Shown in pieces: positions 18,001 to 24,000 of a DNA stretch of 64,000 bases. The stretch's first letter is position 1. Every line of letters begins with the position of its first letter. Source of the DNA: an uncultured delta proteobacterium (lineage in GTDB: Bacteria > Desulfobacterota > Desulfomonilia > Desulfomonilales > Desulfomonilaceae); NCBI GenBank assembly GCA_963789265.1, contig CAWBKB010000005.1:512001-576000 (forward strand), written 5' to 3'. The position numbers are program-made.

Positions 18001-21000
18001 CAACAACTCTCCGACAGATTGTCCGTGAGCAAGACCCCAGGGACTGACCAGCACGTTGAGGAATATGCATAGAAGTACAAAGAACTTCATGCATCCCCCC
18101 CATTTCATCAAAGCGGCGCCTCGGCCAGAATACTCCAGTCCCTTGGACTCATCCACCATGGCTAGCTCGAAATGGCCGGAAGGGCTGTCTACAGGGATGC
18201 TTCCGGTTTCAGCGATGATCAGCATCAGGAACGACAGAACCACCAGCACATGCGCGGGTTCAAAGAAATTCGCCATAGGCGTGACCCAGTGTTTTTGAAC
18301 GATGTATGGAATGGTGGAACCTGCAACGAATGAGACGGTGAAGAAAACAATCATGAACACCGGTTCGGCTAAAAATCCCACCATCCTAGTACCGGCTGGC
18401 CCCCATTGGACCGTACGGGTTTGCAGTATCAATGGCCGCAAGCGTCGCAAAAAAGCCACCGAGAGCTAGAATAAAGCCACCTCCCAGCATGTCTGCCATG
18501 AAAGCGAAGAAGAGCGGGTAGCTCGTGAGGACAGGTATGAGCAGCGTCACGAAGATCGGCGTGACAAATACTATGTACGGGGTGACGCGAAAAATCCAAG
18601 AAGAGTGCTCGGATACGACTTCGTCTTTGTGAAAGAGCTTCCATATATCAAAGTACGGCTGAAAAACGCTGGGGCCTCGCTTGGACTGGATTCGCTCTTT
18701 AAGGCGACCAAGCACTCCCTTTACGAGAGGGGCAAAAGCCATTACCACGAGCACCTGCATTAAATTAAACAGGATTTTCTGGGCCATGCGTTTACCTCCT
18801 GTCGCCATAGCCGCTTGTTAACAAGTCATGTCGAATCGCTTTCAAGCGAGTGATATTGGTTAGCTATCGAATAAGAGATAACCGGCAAATGGAGAATTGC
18901 ACTGACCTGAGCACCATCATGGTGCTCAGGTCAGTGGCACCCAACATCCATTCACGAGGTGCTGGGTGCCACGGATCGAGGCTTTGTGAGATCCGTGCTG
19001 TATTTATCGCTTGATAACGAACCAATATCACTGCTCGAATACTCCCTATATAAGTCGAGAAAAACAAAAGACCCGCACCAGCAAAGCTGTGCGGGCTACG
19101 TTTAAACTAAAAACCCACCCAGCTTACACGGGGTGGGGTAAGATCTATCTCTTAAGAGACTCCTACCCCATAGCGGTAGGAGTCATAAGCTCATAGGAAA
19201 AATCCCGGAGCAGTTCAGGCAGACTCCATTGCCTTCAATAGTGTCGCGCATAATTACAAAACAAATGCACCCTTGTCAAGCATGCTGAGAGCAACCAAGC
19301 GATCTGTTTCCTAAGTGCAGTCCTGTGTCATTTTTTAGGGTTAAGATTGCTTCGCTGCGCTCGCAATGACAGGTCCCCGAATGTCCTTGCGAGCGCAGCG
19401 AAGCAATCTTAACTTTGATGCGGACTCATATTTATGCCATCGCGTACTACACCCCCTTGAGCCACCCGAGAGATGACTGCAAGGTTGCCGGCTCCACAAG
19501 TGCTGTACTACAAATCGAGCACAGCGGACAGCGTCTCAGTCAGTTCCATAAAATCCGTTTGCATCTCCTTCGCCGGATCTCTCGCTTCACCAGCCGAATA
19601 AGTATAGCCAAAGTGTTTGTTGATGGCGAACGCTCTGTCTTTGCAATAAGCTTCAAGGGAAGGTTTGGTCATGCTGCCAATCAGGTACGCCCCAATTGAA
19701 CCACCCCATCTGAAATGGGGCCCGTCTCCTCCGCTGTCACCAACGATCACTACTTGATTCGGCCCTATCCCCGAAGAATTCATTACGGATTGGGTATTCT
19801 TGGGCTTGTCTTCAATTTCATTGACCCAATACATGTAACGAGGGGCTTCCGACTCTCCCAAAAAACGGATTAGAGGATTGGAGGCCACAAATGGAACATC
19901 AGGGATGAGATTCCGGGCAAGCATCCGCTGGAAATAGCCTTGCGGTCCGGTGGTATTAATCATGAAAAGAATGCCATGATCCCGGCACCATTGGATGAAA
20001 TCAGGGACGCCGCGATACGTAGCGAAGTTAGCGTCGAGATAAGCATCCATCTGATCTACCGTAATGGGAGCAGGAATCAGGGCCGAGATTTGTTGGGTGG
20101 CCTGGGTCAGAGAAATCTTGTTGCCCGTATACTCGGTAAAGATTTTAGATAGCTTTGGTTCCAGATCCGGATAGGTAAATGAAATCGGATCGAATGGACC
20201 GGATGGCGCCAAACATTGGTTCCAATCCGATGAAACGAGAGCCTGGTACTTCATTTCTCTTATCCTTCCTTTCTCCTCAGATAAATTGCAACCGCTTCCC
20301 CGCCACCGCCGTGTCGCCAAGCCCAACGAAACTTATCGTGGGTAATGTACAGCGCGAAGAACATCTCGGTTATTTTCTCAGTTCGAAGATTCGGCAGGCC
20401 CAGCGGGGAATCACTCCAGCTTCTGCCCTAATTTCGCTCATAGTCCCTTCTGAATGTCCTCTTGTAAAGGTCTTCGCCATAGGCGGTCTGCAACGGCTCT
20501 CCTTCGATTAGCCGAAAAGTTCGTGTCCCGTCGGTTCGCCTTTCTGCTCGTAAGAAAAGGGCGTTGTTCACTTTCTTGTCAAAAAAATCGCGGGCGAATT
20601 CATACAAATGCGTGACAAAGAAAACCTTGATGTTTTTCTCCAATAATGCGCTGACTATCTGCCTTGCGATCTCCGAGCCTTCTCTTGTATTGGTTGCTGC
20701 AAACGATTCATTGAAAAGCACCAGGGAATTTGACGTTATCATGTCTGCAATATCACTCATCCTGCTCAGTTCTTCGTCAAATTTCCCGCTTTTCATGGTA
20801 GGATCTTCTTCCCTCTTGTAGTGCGTGAAAAGGCCACTGCAAATATTGGCACAGAAAGATTCAGCCGGCACAAACATGCCGCATTGCATCATCAATTGGG
20901 ACAAACCTATGCTTCGCAAAAAAGTCGATTTGCCGCCCTGGTTGGCCCCTGTAATGATCACGAGGTCTTTGTTCTCTGCGTTCACATCGTTACCAACGAT

Positions 21001-24000
21001 ATCTCGCTTCATGGTAAGGGCCAAACAGACATCGTATAAGCCCTTAAAGGAATGTCTGCGTTCGCCGGCAGCCACCGGTACGGGAAAAGATATTGGCTCC
21101 CCCATTTGGGCAAGCTGTTCAGATAGATTTAAACAGCCGATGTAAAAGGCCAATTCGACTCGTAACATTTCAAAAAAACTATCAATATGATCGGCAGATT
21201 GAGCAAGTGCGTTGGCAACCAGTCTGATCCCCCTGTTTCTTAATTCCGCCACTGCGTTGGCACCGGCTTCATCCCGATCGGCGACATAATAGGTGTAAAC
21301 GGGAGCGCTTTCGCCAAAGATCCGCTCCAACCAACTTTGTCTTTTATCCAGTGGCTTGCGAAGCACGTAATTGGTGCCTTCGTTGCCTTTTCCTAATTCG
21401 GCACTGATCAAAACCCCCTGGCGAAATTTCAATTCCTTTAAATAATTTTCGACAATGGCGAAATATTCATCATCAAGTTCTCTTTTGATCATCGCGAAAA
21501 ACGTGGTAAAGCCTTCTGACTCAAATTTTTCTGCATGCTCGTCGGCAATATTCTTTAGCTTTTTGAGCAAGCCCACAAACATTTGCAGCATTTCTATCGC
21601 GCTATGCAGGAGACTCGAGGGAAGTTTGCTGAAAAAGCCCATCCAACTTCTTCTCTTGTTTTCAATTGATTCAATCGGGAGTTGATAGATGTCCCTGACA
21701 ATAGCCGAATTTTTCAGGCAATCCTTGAGTATGTTTTGGCGATAAATCAATGTATCCGGATCGGCTGAACCGCACAATACAGCGCTCTTTGCCACTTCAA
21801 ACAAGAATTTGTCACCAAGTGCCACGGCATGGAACATCGTGTTCAATTCCAGGTCCTGTGTTAGCGTTTGTTCATTCGACGGCAATTCCTGCTTCAGGTC
21901 GAAATCTCGATCTTTATACATAAGGAAAGCCTTCATGATTTTATGCGTTCCTTTAAACAACCATAAGTGATGCGATGCTTCTCGGCGATGGATAGCGCGT
22001 ATGAAAGCCCGTCAGCAGGCCTTCTCACAATTTTATATGTTCGCAATGCAGGATTTTCCGGGACAACCGTGCTGACCATGCTGACGGTTTGTTCGCCCAA
22101 AGAAGCCAATTCGTCGATGAATGTCACCCAAACGCACAAGGAGCCTAATTCCATTATTCTTTCCATTACCTTCTTGCTCAAGAAAACTGCGTCTTGTAAT
22201 GTTGCGGAAGTGAATATTTCATTTAGTATCAGAACGCTGTTCGGCGTGGCCCGGTTTAGAATATCGTGAACCCTGACCAGGTCTTCTTGCAGTTTGCCGC
22301 GGAGATTCCTGATATCTTCGCGCCTCTCAAAATGCGTAAAGATCCTGTCAAACAGAAAGAGTCGTGCTTTCTTGCCCGGCACTGGACAGCCCAAGACGGC
22401 TAGATAATGTAGCTGCCCGAAAGTGCGGCCAAAGGTTGTCTTACCTCCCTGGTTCGGACCGGATACCACAAATATGCGTTCCTTACCTTTCAGGTAAAAA
22501 TCATTACAGACGACGGACGAATTCTCGGTAAGGAGCTTATGCGCCAGGGCTAAATCAAATCCTTCATGATCATAAACTTCCTTGTCCGTACCGGAAAGCT
22601 GCGGGTAACAGAATTTCAACCCGGTCAACCTGAGCTTTTCGATATACTTTAAGTAGGCAACATAAAATTGTATTTCCCGGTCAAAGACGGCTATAGTTTG
22701 GTCCAGATAACCGCGGTTATGTTCGCAATAATTATCGAGATTTAGAAACACTTCGGGATATAATTTGGCTACGAAGTCTAATATTGCCGCTTCAACATGA
22801 TTCATGCCCGACCACATTGGGGGCTTGGTCTTGTAATTTTTTACGTCACCCTGTTTAAATTTTTCGAATGTTTTTTCCACCTCGACGCTGTAATCAATCT
22901 CAGATTCATACTTGCGCACCTTGACAGAGTTATCCTTAACGAGCATGCAATATTTTACCGTTGATAATTCGGCTTTAAGCTTTTTCGTTTCCGCCAGTAG
23001 TGACCCAAAGCCACCGGAGTTGACATAGTTCGTCGCGTATTCGCGGAACATCAAAAGGCCTCGTGATTTCAAATTGGCAAGGTTCAGATCGCGTACCAGG
23101 CTAGTAACGGCCTCGCAATAAATTTCTACTGCCTCCAAAAACCATCCTTCTTTATGGTACTTGTAGTGAAGCTTATCTTCCAGGGAAAGGTATCGATGCA
23201 TTGTAGTCATTTTGAGCGCAAATGATTCTATATTTTCCAGCAGAATTTCGTTTTCAAGGTCCTGTGCTATTTCTTGGCGGTACTTGATGGCATCGATACC
23301 ATTTAACGAAGTGTAAAAAAGCGGTTTTAAATTGTATGTCTCCTTACCGGCCGTAATTGCATCCACAATCTGATCGAGATTCAAATCAACAAAGAAGGCA
23401 GGCGCCTCAAGGATTTCCTCTTTTGCGCCGTCTTCAGGTCTTTCAAATAGTATGCTGTGGAAAGTCATAGCAAACACCCAGGGACACTTGCCATCCCGTT
23501 TGCCTTCGGCATTGAATTGTAGCTTGCTCCAATGAAACCAAAAAACCCACCTTGCGGTGGGAGAGTCTTTATTGCACGACCCGCCGCAATGTTCTCGCGG
23601 CAGGAGTCATCAGCCTGTCAGGCGGTTTGGGGGAACTCCATCCCCTCACGTTTCTTTCTTTCCCTACTTCTCTACTTTTTACAAAGTCAAGGGCCTCACG
23701 GAAATCGCCGCGGCTATATCATAAGTCAGACTGTCGGGTTTTTCGAAACTGGTTTACAAGATTCTACCGGCGCCCAGTCGCCACTACCTCCGCAACTTCT
23801 CTGAGCTTCCCTATCAGCAAGGCCGTCCTAGGATCGAGGTAATCCGCCAAGCCGGGCGGAACCTCCCCGTATCTGCGAAGACGAGAGCCTTCAAGCTCCG
23901 AAAGCGAGACCCAAAGTACCGAGCACGAACTCAAGATCATTTTCTCTGCAATGTGAACCGAACCGTCCAGGTTCAACGTGTCCCGCATTTCTCTAAGGAT

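Follow-up and report, generated by a model that had tools for sequence, protein, structure and literature searches.

The two adjacent MutS-related genes behind a fluoride riboswitch in the DNA analysed here (the "window", 64,000 nucleotides of an uncultured delta proteobacterium, assembly GCA_963789265.1, whose position 1 is position 512,001 of contig CAWBKB010000005.1) fit the MutS4A/MutS4B subfamily named in 2007 by Lin, Nei & Ma (Nucleic Acids Res 35:7591, PMC2190696), as far as the available part of that paper describes it. They are a further member of that subfamily, not a new type of protein; the novelty claimed in a preliminary description of this DNA therefore falls away. Weinberg et al. 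had already in 2010 entered "DNA repair (mutS)" in their list of genes that follow the crcB motif (PMC2864571). The reading that we prefer, with somewhat less than even confidence, is that the pair forms a fluoride-induced, asymmetric heterodimeric, ATP-operated clamp with a fluoride-tolerant site, which acts most likely on duplex or branched DNA. The window contributes a family-wide Walker B asparagine, a degenerate site in the A subunit only and natural A-to-B fusions; it does not add a function.

The fluoride riboswitch and its genes

The preliminary description had placed a fluoride riboswitch at contig positions 535594-535654, heading paralogues of 511 and 502 amino acids, and this is correct. 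The aptamer (crcB motif, RF01734; 23594..23654, minus strand) matches the full Rfam model (positions 1-64) with an E-value of 7.2e-13 and 56.1 bits against a gathering score of 34, and it was recovered in a whole-genome search; 125 nt separate its end from the MutS4A ATG. The expression platform (23536..23593, minus strand), delimited by terminator scan, RNA folding and reading of the sequence, contains an intrinsic-terminator-like hairpin, CCCACC-GCAA-GGTGGG, at 23561-23546, followed by six T residues. The platform also has a hairpin able to sequester the 3' strand of the aptamer, and the stretch GCGGCGGG, picked out by eye, would be able to pair with the 5' arm of the terminator as an antiterminator. 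The region 23535-23660 folds at -49 kcal/mol (z -3.4). A sigma-70-like promoter candidate (23718..23746, minus strand; TCGAAA and TATGAT with a 17 nt spacer) matches the consensus at 9 of 12 positions, where shuffled sequences average 0.1 such sites; it is a consensus match only. The MutS4 locus thus has what characterizes a fluoride-riboswitch operon: a same-strand aptamer in the 5' leader, scoring above the gathering score and with an expression platform.

MutS4A (21933..23468, minus strand) has 511 amino acids counted from the ATG at 23468, while the longest open reading frame has 514 and starts from a GTG at 23477. The ATG of MutS4B (20428..21936, minus strand; 502 amino acids) overlaps the MutS4A TGA in the sequence ATGA at 21936-21933, and translation of the two is coupled. 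Their products are 27% identical over the C-terminal 211 amino acids. MutS_V occurs in four genes of the genome. Besides the pair these are a MutS with domains II-V and a MutS2 with MutS_V, MSSS and Smr, so a normal MutS and a normal MutS2 do lie elsewhere, as had been stated.

A third gene (19508..20254, minus strand; 248 amino acids) starts 173 nt past MutS4B. It had been described as HAD-like; the gene is indeed present at 20254..19508, but that label is weakly founded, because the sole profile match is to NCBIfam HAD-IB at 24.2 bits (cut-off 45) and a PDB sequence search gave no match. A Pfam search gave none either, and by eye the N-terminal motif reads D-W-N, compared with the DxD nucleophile motif of the HAD superfamily, with a GDSGGD motif also present. 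Homologues occur near the MutS4 pair in 3 of 80 related loci (L002, L015 and L004), and the gene is not conserved as a companion of the pair. Two further fluoride riboswitches flank this operon, both on the minus strand. One (19170..19242, 48.1 bits) heads hydrogenase-4/complex-I-like membrane subunit genes (NADHdh domains in the downstream frames). The other (28642..28702, 41.9 bits) is followed on the same strand (28525..23764) by genes for a dynamin-like GTPase, a 329-amino-acid Cys-rich protein, enolase and a 138-amino-acid protein (Dynamin_N and Enolase domains), which their position and strand suggest to be one operon.

Architecture, ATP sites and conservation of the pair

Pfam recognizes only MutS_V in both proteins (337-500 of the 514-residue MutS4A frame, 1.9e-18; 334-495 of the 510-residue MutS4B frame, 2.8e-24); the preliminary description gave the same ranges, once the shift in start is allowed for. 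There is no Pfam match in either to MutS_I, MutS_II, KOW (MSSS) or Smr; both proteins end about 20-30 residues past the ATPase domain, and in fold comparison E. coli MutS aligns only from residue ~156-260 on. The reported absence of mismatch-binding, KOW and Smr domains is thereby upheld, and since MutS domains I and II are lacking, MutS4A and MutS4B are not mismatch sensors, again as had been argued. The AF2 models (pLDDT 85.2 and pTM 0.82 for MutS4A, 88.0 and 0.86 for MutS4B) predict in both a full MutS lever-clamp-ATPase core, consisting of lever, small clamp hairpin, ATPase domain V and C-terminal helices. Their matches to MutS, MSH2 and MutS2 chains cover about 350-460 residues with Z of 27-30, a range that MutS4A spans with all three. 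The modelled N-termini are level with that of MutS2 (model residue ~22 corresponds to MutS2 residue 1, and ~22-500 to ~1-495, Z 27-28.6). The pair is therefore MutS2-like in core architecture, but not in preference, as sequence and fold scores tie among MutS2, MutS and MSH. The PDB sequence matches and ranges reported earlier were reproduced, but the E-values of MutS2 are nearly equal to those of MutS/MSH, and the best match of MutS4B is Taq MutS rather than MutS2.

The ATP sites depart from the usual pattern in both subunits, though differently. MutS4A has an intact Walker A, N416-E417 as its Walker B and Phe450 in place of the H-loop His; MutS4B has N409-E410 and retains His443. By motif counts the Walker B Asn is found in 54/54 A and 68/68 B sequences, and the H-loop residue is Phe in every one of these A sequences and His in every B; Asp-Glu is found in all nine of the MutS_V paralogues compared (MutS, MutS2 and others, taken from five genomes). 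The trans signature S-T-F is replaced by G-K-L/F, with a conserved basic residue (Lys; Arg in 4 of the 68 B). The clamp tips carry a mean net charge of +0.5 in A and +3.4 in B, which is only mildly basic and does not single out DNA.

MutS4B directly follows MutS4A in 80/80 related loci, with stop and start mostly overlapping or abutting (tblastn offset 0 to +6 nt in 72). Seventeen of 20 long homologues are natural A-then-B fusions with linkers of up to ~40 amino acids, and six fusion clusters have 4 to 11 member sequences each; some fusions could be frameshift artefacts of metagenome assemblies. Pairing, fusions and the complementary loss of the H-loop His strongly support the heterodimer proposed in the preliminary description, and the two proteins are most likely the halves of one ATP-driven clamp that touch each other. 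A same-strand fluoride riboswitch lies upstream in 59 of the 76 loci with upstream DNA, within 1 kb in 46 (38 strong and 8 weak by our own model, 5 of these 8 passing the Rfam gathering score) and farther away in another 13; none was found upstream in the other 17. The family is patchily distributed: the pair is present in 11 of 401 sampled genomes of the same phylum and 0 of 7 of the same family, phyla are mixed in the tree, and homologues are carried by 45 plasmids, 21 of them conjugative. Homologues include a Thermoplasmata archaeon and Thermoanaerobacteraceae, both lineages named for MutS4 in the available part of PMC2190696. The best matches across phyla are 70-76% identical, and archaeal copies are 52-60% identical to the bacterial copy of the window. 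On a given side, roughly half of the pairs lack any same-strand gene at a distance of 200 nt or less. No MutS2 candidate was seen in four of five other host genomes examined, where the only MutS_V genes to be found were MutS4 pairs and, where present, MutS; neither MutS nor MutL was found in one pair-bearing genome (completeness not reported). In some genomes the pair would be independent of MutS2, MutS and MutL.

What the proposed clamp may act on

On our preferred reading, fluoride would lock the riboswitch and prevent termination, so that the pair is transcribed only then, and coupled translation would yield one asymmetric heterodimer, each subunit a MutS core of lever arms, small clamp hairpin, ABC-type ATPase and C-terminal helices. 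Both ATP sites would be rewired around the metal through the Walker B Asn and the G-K-L/F trans signature; as the H-loop His is kept only in B, hydrolysis probably takes place at one of the two sites, with the other in a regulatory role. The clamp would close on a universal polyanion under fluoride stress, most likely duplex or branched DNA (recombination or replication intermediates), and its weakened magnesium site may let the switch keep cycling while magnesium-fluoride species poison ordinary P-loop enzymes. This rationale for the Asn is by analogy with one E. coli mutant, MutS D693N, described in the available part of PMC2857095 as losing tight Mg and ATP binding, yet having an active uncoupled ATPase. 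From the archaeal identities and the many pairs without a close same-strand gene we infer a universal substrate. That it is DNA is what the sole experiment found in the MutS4 literature searched points to: the M. yongonense MutS4 operon placed in M. smegmatis gave 55 versus 22 rifampin-resistant colonies and 75% versus 31% true recombinants, with longer recombined tracts (PMC5742357, available part). That experiment is small, heterologous and without fluoride or any connection to it, and direct and indirect effects are not separated in it; the literature searched does not name any lesion that fluoride would cause in bacterial DNA. A bolder proposal, which we regard as unlikely, is that Walker B Asn and basic signature residue make the pair a fluoride-hardened switch that cycles with little or no magnesium, escapes ADP-metal-fluoride trapping and performs a clearing task on DNA (or RNA-protein) while fluoride freezes ordinary P-loop clamps and motors; a nucleic-acid transaction would then be a primary cellular target of fluoride.

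The preliminary description instead saw in the pair a MutS2/RqcU-like clamp at work on ribosomes that fluoride has stalled, or on other nucleoprotein jams that it causes; on this reading the clamp would split or clear them. Many Mg-dependent enzymes are inhibited by fluoride, so stalled translation is plausible, and the modelled core is indeed level with the MutS2 start (7vuk_B, Z 28.4, rmsd 3.1 over 356 residues; also 9kce and 7qv3). MutS2 splits ribosomes with its ABC ATPase, but is recruited to collided ribosomes by KOW and SMR domains (PMC10897456, available part), and it is just these that the pair lacks. Moreover, neither fold nor sequence scores set MutS2 above MutS and MSH, and the 80 neighbourhoods show no link to translation factors except for TiaS, which lies next to three archaeal copies that are close relatives of one another. 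Copies from archaea and bacteria are alike although ribosomal protein surfaces differ, no MutS2 candidate was seen in four of the five other hosts, and the only experiment indicates recombination. The main support for ribosome rescue is thus removed, and we consider that role very improbable.

We give as slim a chance to the idea that nucleic acid is not the substrate at all and that the pair is an ATP-driven reactivase or chaperone freeing poisoned enzymes, such as enolase, of inhibitory Mg-fluoride-phosphate complexes, in parallel with KamC, a MutS-like ATPase that NCBI names lysine 5,6-aminomutase reactivase. The NCBIfam KamC model (NF052383; 508 positions, a length similar to A and B) matches MutS4B at 83.9 bits, about like the MutS/MutS2 models, but MutS4A at 42.4 bits, in both over the ATPase domain only and far from the cut-off of 300. 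Weakly charged clamp tips would suit such a role. So would the neighbours, with enolase no farther than 8 kb away in 16 of the 80 loci and phosphoglycerate-mutase-type phosphatases so placed in 7, except that most loci have no enolase and that, where present, it usually belongs to a separate riboswitch unit. No KamC biochemistry was found in the literature searched, whose sole yield was a figure legend that names a "mutS" gene in lysine-fermentation clusters (PMC3149608, available part). The pair might, finally, serve a mobile fluoride island rather than the cell, by lowering the barrier that limits homeologous recombination and thereby helping the island to spread or integrate. The more frequent and longer homeologous tracts in M. 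smegmatis, the plasmid-borne homologues, the rarity in the phylum and family and the mixed phyla of the tree agree with this, but the tight control by a fluoride sensor found in most loci speaks for a cellular task specific to that stress, and the 70-76% identity across phyla with retained ATPase motifs for strong purifying selection on a biochemical function; we think this explanation a poor prospect.

The MutS4 pair is among the most recurrent members of fluoride-riboswitch islands after exporters and glycolytic enzymes, and it travels on conjugative plasmids of Enterobacteriaceae. Learning what its clamp holds on to would uncover a target of fluoride toxicity other than enolase and pyrophosphatase.

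Comparison with known systems

The window's pair differs in nothing essential from the MutS4 subfamily as the available parts of PMC2190696 and PMC5742357 describe it: the ATPase region (MutSac, or domain V) alone is recognizable, A and B are adjacent paralogues in that order, the A stop overlaps the B start, and distribution is patchy among distant bacteria and archaea. The M. yongonense operon even lies on an island with enolase and NADH-dehydrogenase/hydrogenase-like genes, as in the window, which adds only the weakly HAD-like third gene, rare elsewhere. The words fluoride and riboswitch do not occur in the searched text of Kim et al. 2017 (Front Microbiol 8:2578, PMC5742357), and no mention of fluoride, riboswitch, Walker B Asn or A/B asymmetry was found in the available parts of that paper and of Lin et al. 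2007. With the fluoride riboswitch regulon (RF01734; PMC2864571, PMC5533749) the locus shares an aptamer and terminator in the 5' leader and neighbours such as enolase, Na+/H+ and Mrp-type antiporters, CrcB, Usp and hydrogenase-like complexes. The experimentally dissected FRM operon of E. cloacae differs in having no MutS pair (PMC5533749 has no mention of MutS), and MutS is likewise missing from a fluoride-resistance review of 2024 (PMC11139923).

MutS2/RqcU (B. subtilis 7qv3 and 8qpp; T. thermophilus core 7vuf and 7vuk; T. maritima 9kce) resembles the pair in its lever-clamp-ATPase core from the N-terminus and its lack of MutS domains I and II (Z 27-28.6, rmsd 3.1-4.7 over ~350-390 residues). 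MutS4 lacks the C-terminal coiled-coil, KOW or Smr part, however, and whereas MutS2 is a homodimer with Walker B Asp-Glu, MutS4 is an obligate A/B pair with Asn-Glu, has one subunit without the H-loop His and is under fluoride-riboswitch control. Unlike MutS and MSH2-MSH3/6, it has neither domain I (mismatch-binding) nor domain II (connector), and its clamp domain is a hairpin and loop. It has domains III, IV and V in common with them (Z up to 30.6), and a MutS4 heterodimer with unequal ATP sites would be reminiscent of the MSH heterodimers.

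The MutS4 pair and its fluoride riboswitch island

The pair of MutS-like genes in the window, here called MutS4A (g04603; 23468..21933, minus strand, 511 aa) and MutS4B (g04602; 21936..20428, minus strand, 502 aa), lies behind a fluoride riboswitch at 23654-23594 (minus strand; 56.1 bits with RF01734, whose gathering score is 34). MutS4A starts 125 nt past the aptamer, and the ATG of MutS4B overlaps the TGA of MutS4A as ATGA. MutS_V is the only Pfam domain in either protein, and elsewhere the genome encodes a MutS (domains II to V) and a MutS2 (MutS_V, MSSS and Smr). These findings confirm the preliminary description of a riboswitch-headed pair followed by a third gene, as well as its conclusion that the pair is not a mismatch sensor, and the PDB match figures it gave were reproduced. 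Lin, Nei & Ma (2007; PMC2190696) defined a MutS4 subfamily of adjacent MutS4A and MutS4B genes, marked by overlap of the A stop codon with the B start codon and by an ATPase domain as the sole recognizable part, in what that paper lists as a few distant bacteria plus Thermoplasma and Ferroplasma. The window pair shows all three structural marks (adjacency, codon overlap and ATPase domain only), and on these marks it is nearly certain to be another instance of the MutS4A/MutS4B module already known, set in a typical three-riboswitch fluoride island.

The other two riboswitches lie at 28702-28642 (riboswitch 3; 41.9 bits) and 19242-19170 (riboswitch 1; 48.1 bits), both also on the minus strand. 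These three are the only RF01734 matches in the 6.06-Mb genome (95.6% complete), so that all of its fluoride riboswitches fall within 9.6 kb. Despite them, no match to CrcB (PF02537) was found in this 95.6% complete genome; its Voltage_CLC genes are on contigs C1 and C3, and none has a riboswitch match nearby. On the 3' side of the MutS4 riboswitch, a terminator scan found a hairpin and T run resembling an intrinsic terminator (23561-23546, minus strand). In the minimum-energy fold the conserved 3' strand of the aptamer is paired in a separate hairpin upstream of this terminator; by eye, its partner GCGGCGGG could pair instead with CCCACCGC, the 5' arm of the terminator, an arrangement that one would expect in an ON switch. 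Regulation of the pair by fluoride is nearly certain. In Weinberg et al. (2010; PMC2864571), "DNA repair (mutS)" already figures among genes found downstream of the crcB motif; our literature search for fluoride riboswitch and MutS found nothing related, and a 2024 review of fluoride resistance (PMC11139923) does not mention MutS.

The third gene (20254..19508, minus strand, 248 aa) begins 173 nt after MutS4B and has homologues in three of 80 loci carrying the pair. Its earlier description as HAD-like has a weak basis: an NCBIfam HAD-IB match is its only one, but this lies below threshold and Pfam has no match. In the translation, read by eye, D-W-N occupies the position of the HAD DxD nucleophile (20200-20254, minus strand) and the GDSGGD motif is kept. 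Riboswitch 1 is followed first by a gene for a NuoH/HyfC-like membrane subunit that is broken into two overlapping ORFs (17836-18808, minus strand). These cover positions 4-131 and 138-287 of the 298 in the NADHdh profile, and the break has the appearance of a frameshift, pseudogene or assembly error. A Ski2-like helicase (28831-30922, minus strand) is likewise divided between a 535-aa ORF (DEAD and Helicase_C) and a 213-aa ORF (DSHCT) that overlap at 29315-29472, suggesting a frameshift shortly upstream of riboswitch 3. In the interval from riboswitch 3 to the MutS4 riboswitch, on the same strand as the dynamin-like gene and enolase, are genes for a 138-aa protein (23764-24180, minus strand) and a 329-aa Cys-rich protein (25688-26677, minus strand) without significant family matches; the 138-aa type also adjoins the pair in loci L001, L002, L024, L030 and L043, and L002 (twice), L004 and L030 have the 329-aa type there. 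A remodelled metal site was considered for the riboswitch-controlled dynamin-like GTPase and rejected, as its translation, read by eye, seems to have ordinary P-loop, DxxG and NKxD motifs.

ATP sites, probable heterodimer and predicted architecture

Both proteins have an intact Walker A. In Walker B, Asn takes the place of Asp in all 54 MutS4A and all 68 MutS4B sequences, with the following Glu kept, and in pairwise alignments the trans signature S-T-F has become G-K-L/F. The H-loop His position separates the two: it is Phe in 54/54 MutS4A and His in 68/68 MutS4B. Other MutS_V paralogues, from five genomes, have Asp-Glu and Thr-His in nine of nine cases. The same Walker B substitution in E. 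coli MutS, D693N, is reported to abolish tight Mg and ATP binding and to raise an uncoupled steady-state ATPase activity (PMC2857095); because that mutant is still an ATPase, the Asn is unlikely to kill the enzyme here. Its presence throughout the family suggests a speculative reading in which the pair would be a magnesium-poor, fluoride-tolerant switch. A distant double MutS module (P0140, 1107 aa, 28% identical to MutS4A) carries Asn-Glu at each of its Walker B motifs, yet both of its halves retain the H-loop His, so the Asn may be older than the asymmetry between A and B.

In each of 80 genomic loci, retrieved from archaea as well as from many bacterial phyla, MutS4A is followed by MutS4B (tblastn junction offsets 0 in 28 loci, +3 in 28, +6 in 16 and other values in eight). 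Of 20 long homologues, 17 fuse A to B in that order, and their linkers measure 0 to about 40 aa; six of the fusion clusters comprise 4-11 sequences each, and the motif pattern of A and B is kept in the fusions. The invariable pairing of translationally coupled genes, ATP sites that differ in a complementary way, and fusions that recur in multi-member clusters with their motifs kept indirectly make it very probable that A and B form a heterodimer. The heterodimeric clamp of the preliminary description very probably stands. P0138, with a P450-like N-terminus followed by low-complexity sequence, looks like an artefact of assembly or gene calling and was left out of the fusion count. In P0126 (1100 aa, a single metagenome sequence) two DUF6062-like repeats are fused ahead of a MutS4A module; DUF6062 may be a partner, or the fusion may be a gene-calling artefact.

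Alignments of 54 A and 68 B sequences gave confident AlphaFold2 models (A, pLDDT 85.2 and pTM 0.82; B, pLDDT 88.0 and pTM 0.86), which have a common layout of long lever helices, a tip hairpin, a long return helix, the ATPase domain and C-terminal helices. The tip is modelled as a β hairpin, short helix and loop (about 173-223 in A and 176-222 in B). With VIA-align, chains of MSH2, MutS and MutS2 score virtually alike (Z 27-30.6, about 350-460 residues). Alignment to MutS2 cores begins at their residue 1, opposite about model residue 22 (7vuk_B, Z 28.4, rmsd 3.1, 356 residues), and that to E. coli MutS only at about residue 156-260, so the architecture is that of a MutS2 core. No score prefers MutS2 over MutS/MSH, and such a preference cannot be claimed: single-sequence and profile PDB searches give near-equal E-values, the first MutS2 chain is at Foldseek rank 50, and the VIA-align rows do not separate them. 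Residues 1-320 of MutS4A matched only unnamed clusters in the ESM Atlas, the nearest named one being MutS_III at 0.83 (a lead).

Ribosomes or DNA as possible substrates

The preliminary description had the pair act as a MutS2/RqcU-like clamp on ribosomes stalled by fluoride, or on other nucleoprotein jams that it causes. Nothing favours such ribosome rescue beyond the core fold common to the pair and MutS2, but MutS shares that fold too. Against it, MutS2's KOW and SMR domains, which recruit it to collisions (Park et al.; PMC10897456), are absent from both A and B, no translation-quality-control genes occur within 8 kb of the pair in the 80 loci, and the published experiment points to DNA. That experiment, in the only experimental paper found under "MutS4" (Kim et al. 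2017; PMC5742357), concerns a MutS4 operon of M. yongonense from a 13-ORF island that also carries enolase and NADH-dehydrogenase/hydrogenase genes. As reported there, its introduction into M. smegmatis gave 55 vs 22 rifampin-resistant colonies, 75% vs 31% confirmed recombinants, and tracts of 121 vs 44 nt; the text mentions neither fluoride nor riboswitch, though the 770-bp "promoter" fragment used there may carry one. This result is the sole direct evidence and points weakly to DNA. As the best reading we tentatively propose that the fluoride-induced pair would work on DNA as an asymmetric ATP clamp, a statement that as a whole is possible rather than probable.

Five other host genomes were searched for MutS_V, with identities inferred from score and reading-frame length. 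Three have MutS and one or two MutS4 pairs, and one has further MutS_V genes, one of these with the length and score of MutS2. In the fifth, a Thaumarchaeota MAG of unreported completeness, the pair supplies the only MutS_V genes and MutL had no match. Paraburkholderia franconis carries two separate MutS4A/B pairs (contigs C168 and C180) and one MutS.

Conservation, neighbourhood and mobility

Over 8,000 database sequences are related to MutS4A. Nearly all of the best 120 are about 511 aa long and 68-91% identical, and the few of these whose source is named represent Bacillota, Verrucomicrobiota, Chloroflexota and several groups of proteobacteria. A covariance model built from the three window riboswitches and refined on 52 matches gave 118 matches across the 80 loci. 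Upstream DNA was available for 76 loci. In 46 of these a same-strand match lies less than 1 kb from MutS4A (38 at E <1e-4 and eight weaker, five of which the Rfam model confirms at its gathering score and three not), in 13 more it lies farther upstream, and 17 lack one.

Genes within 8 kb of the pair include those for a dynamin-like GTPase (17 of 80 loci), enolase and an MFS transporter (16 each), an Mrp/complex-I antiporter subunit (15), CrcB (12), Usp (10), hydrogenase-like large and 20-kDa subunits (9 each), a Zn-ribbon/HEAT protein, an Na+/H+ exchanger and DUF190 (8 each), an ABC ATPase and a phosphoglycerate-mutase-type phosphatase (7 each), and DUF6062 (6). There is no obligatory neighbour in the 80 loci: the commonest immediate same-strand ones (MFS, dynamin-like, CrcB and TiaS) each occur in just 3-4, and no same-strand gene lies within 200 nt upstream in 28 or downstream in 39. 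The locus of the closest relative (L002, MutS4A 90% identical) has a gene for a FlK-type fluoroacetyl-CoA thioesterase (PF22636, 1.1e-34; 7530-7955) between riboswitch and MutS4A, which is absent from the window.

Within lineages the pair is sparse: of 401 genomes sampled from the same phylum, 11 carry it (our own included), and of seven from the same family none does. It is also mobile, as a MutS4A homologue is found on 45 plasmid records, 21 of them predicted to be conjugative. Phyla are mixed in a quick tree, in which four of five archaeal sequences group together (SH-aLRT 86). On the K. pneumoniae conjugative IncFIB plasmid NZ_CP058867.1 (70766-90289), for example, a 59.4-bit riboswitch precedes genes for an antiporter, Usp, MutS4A and MutS4B, and this MutS4 unit converges on a second riboswitch unit, which equals the E. 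cloacae FRM operon ppaC-usp-eno-gpmA-crcB-ATPase (PMC5533749).
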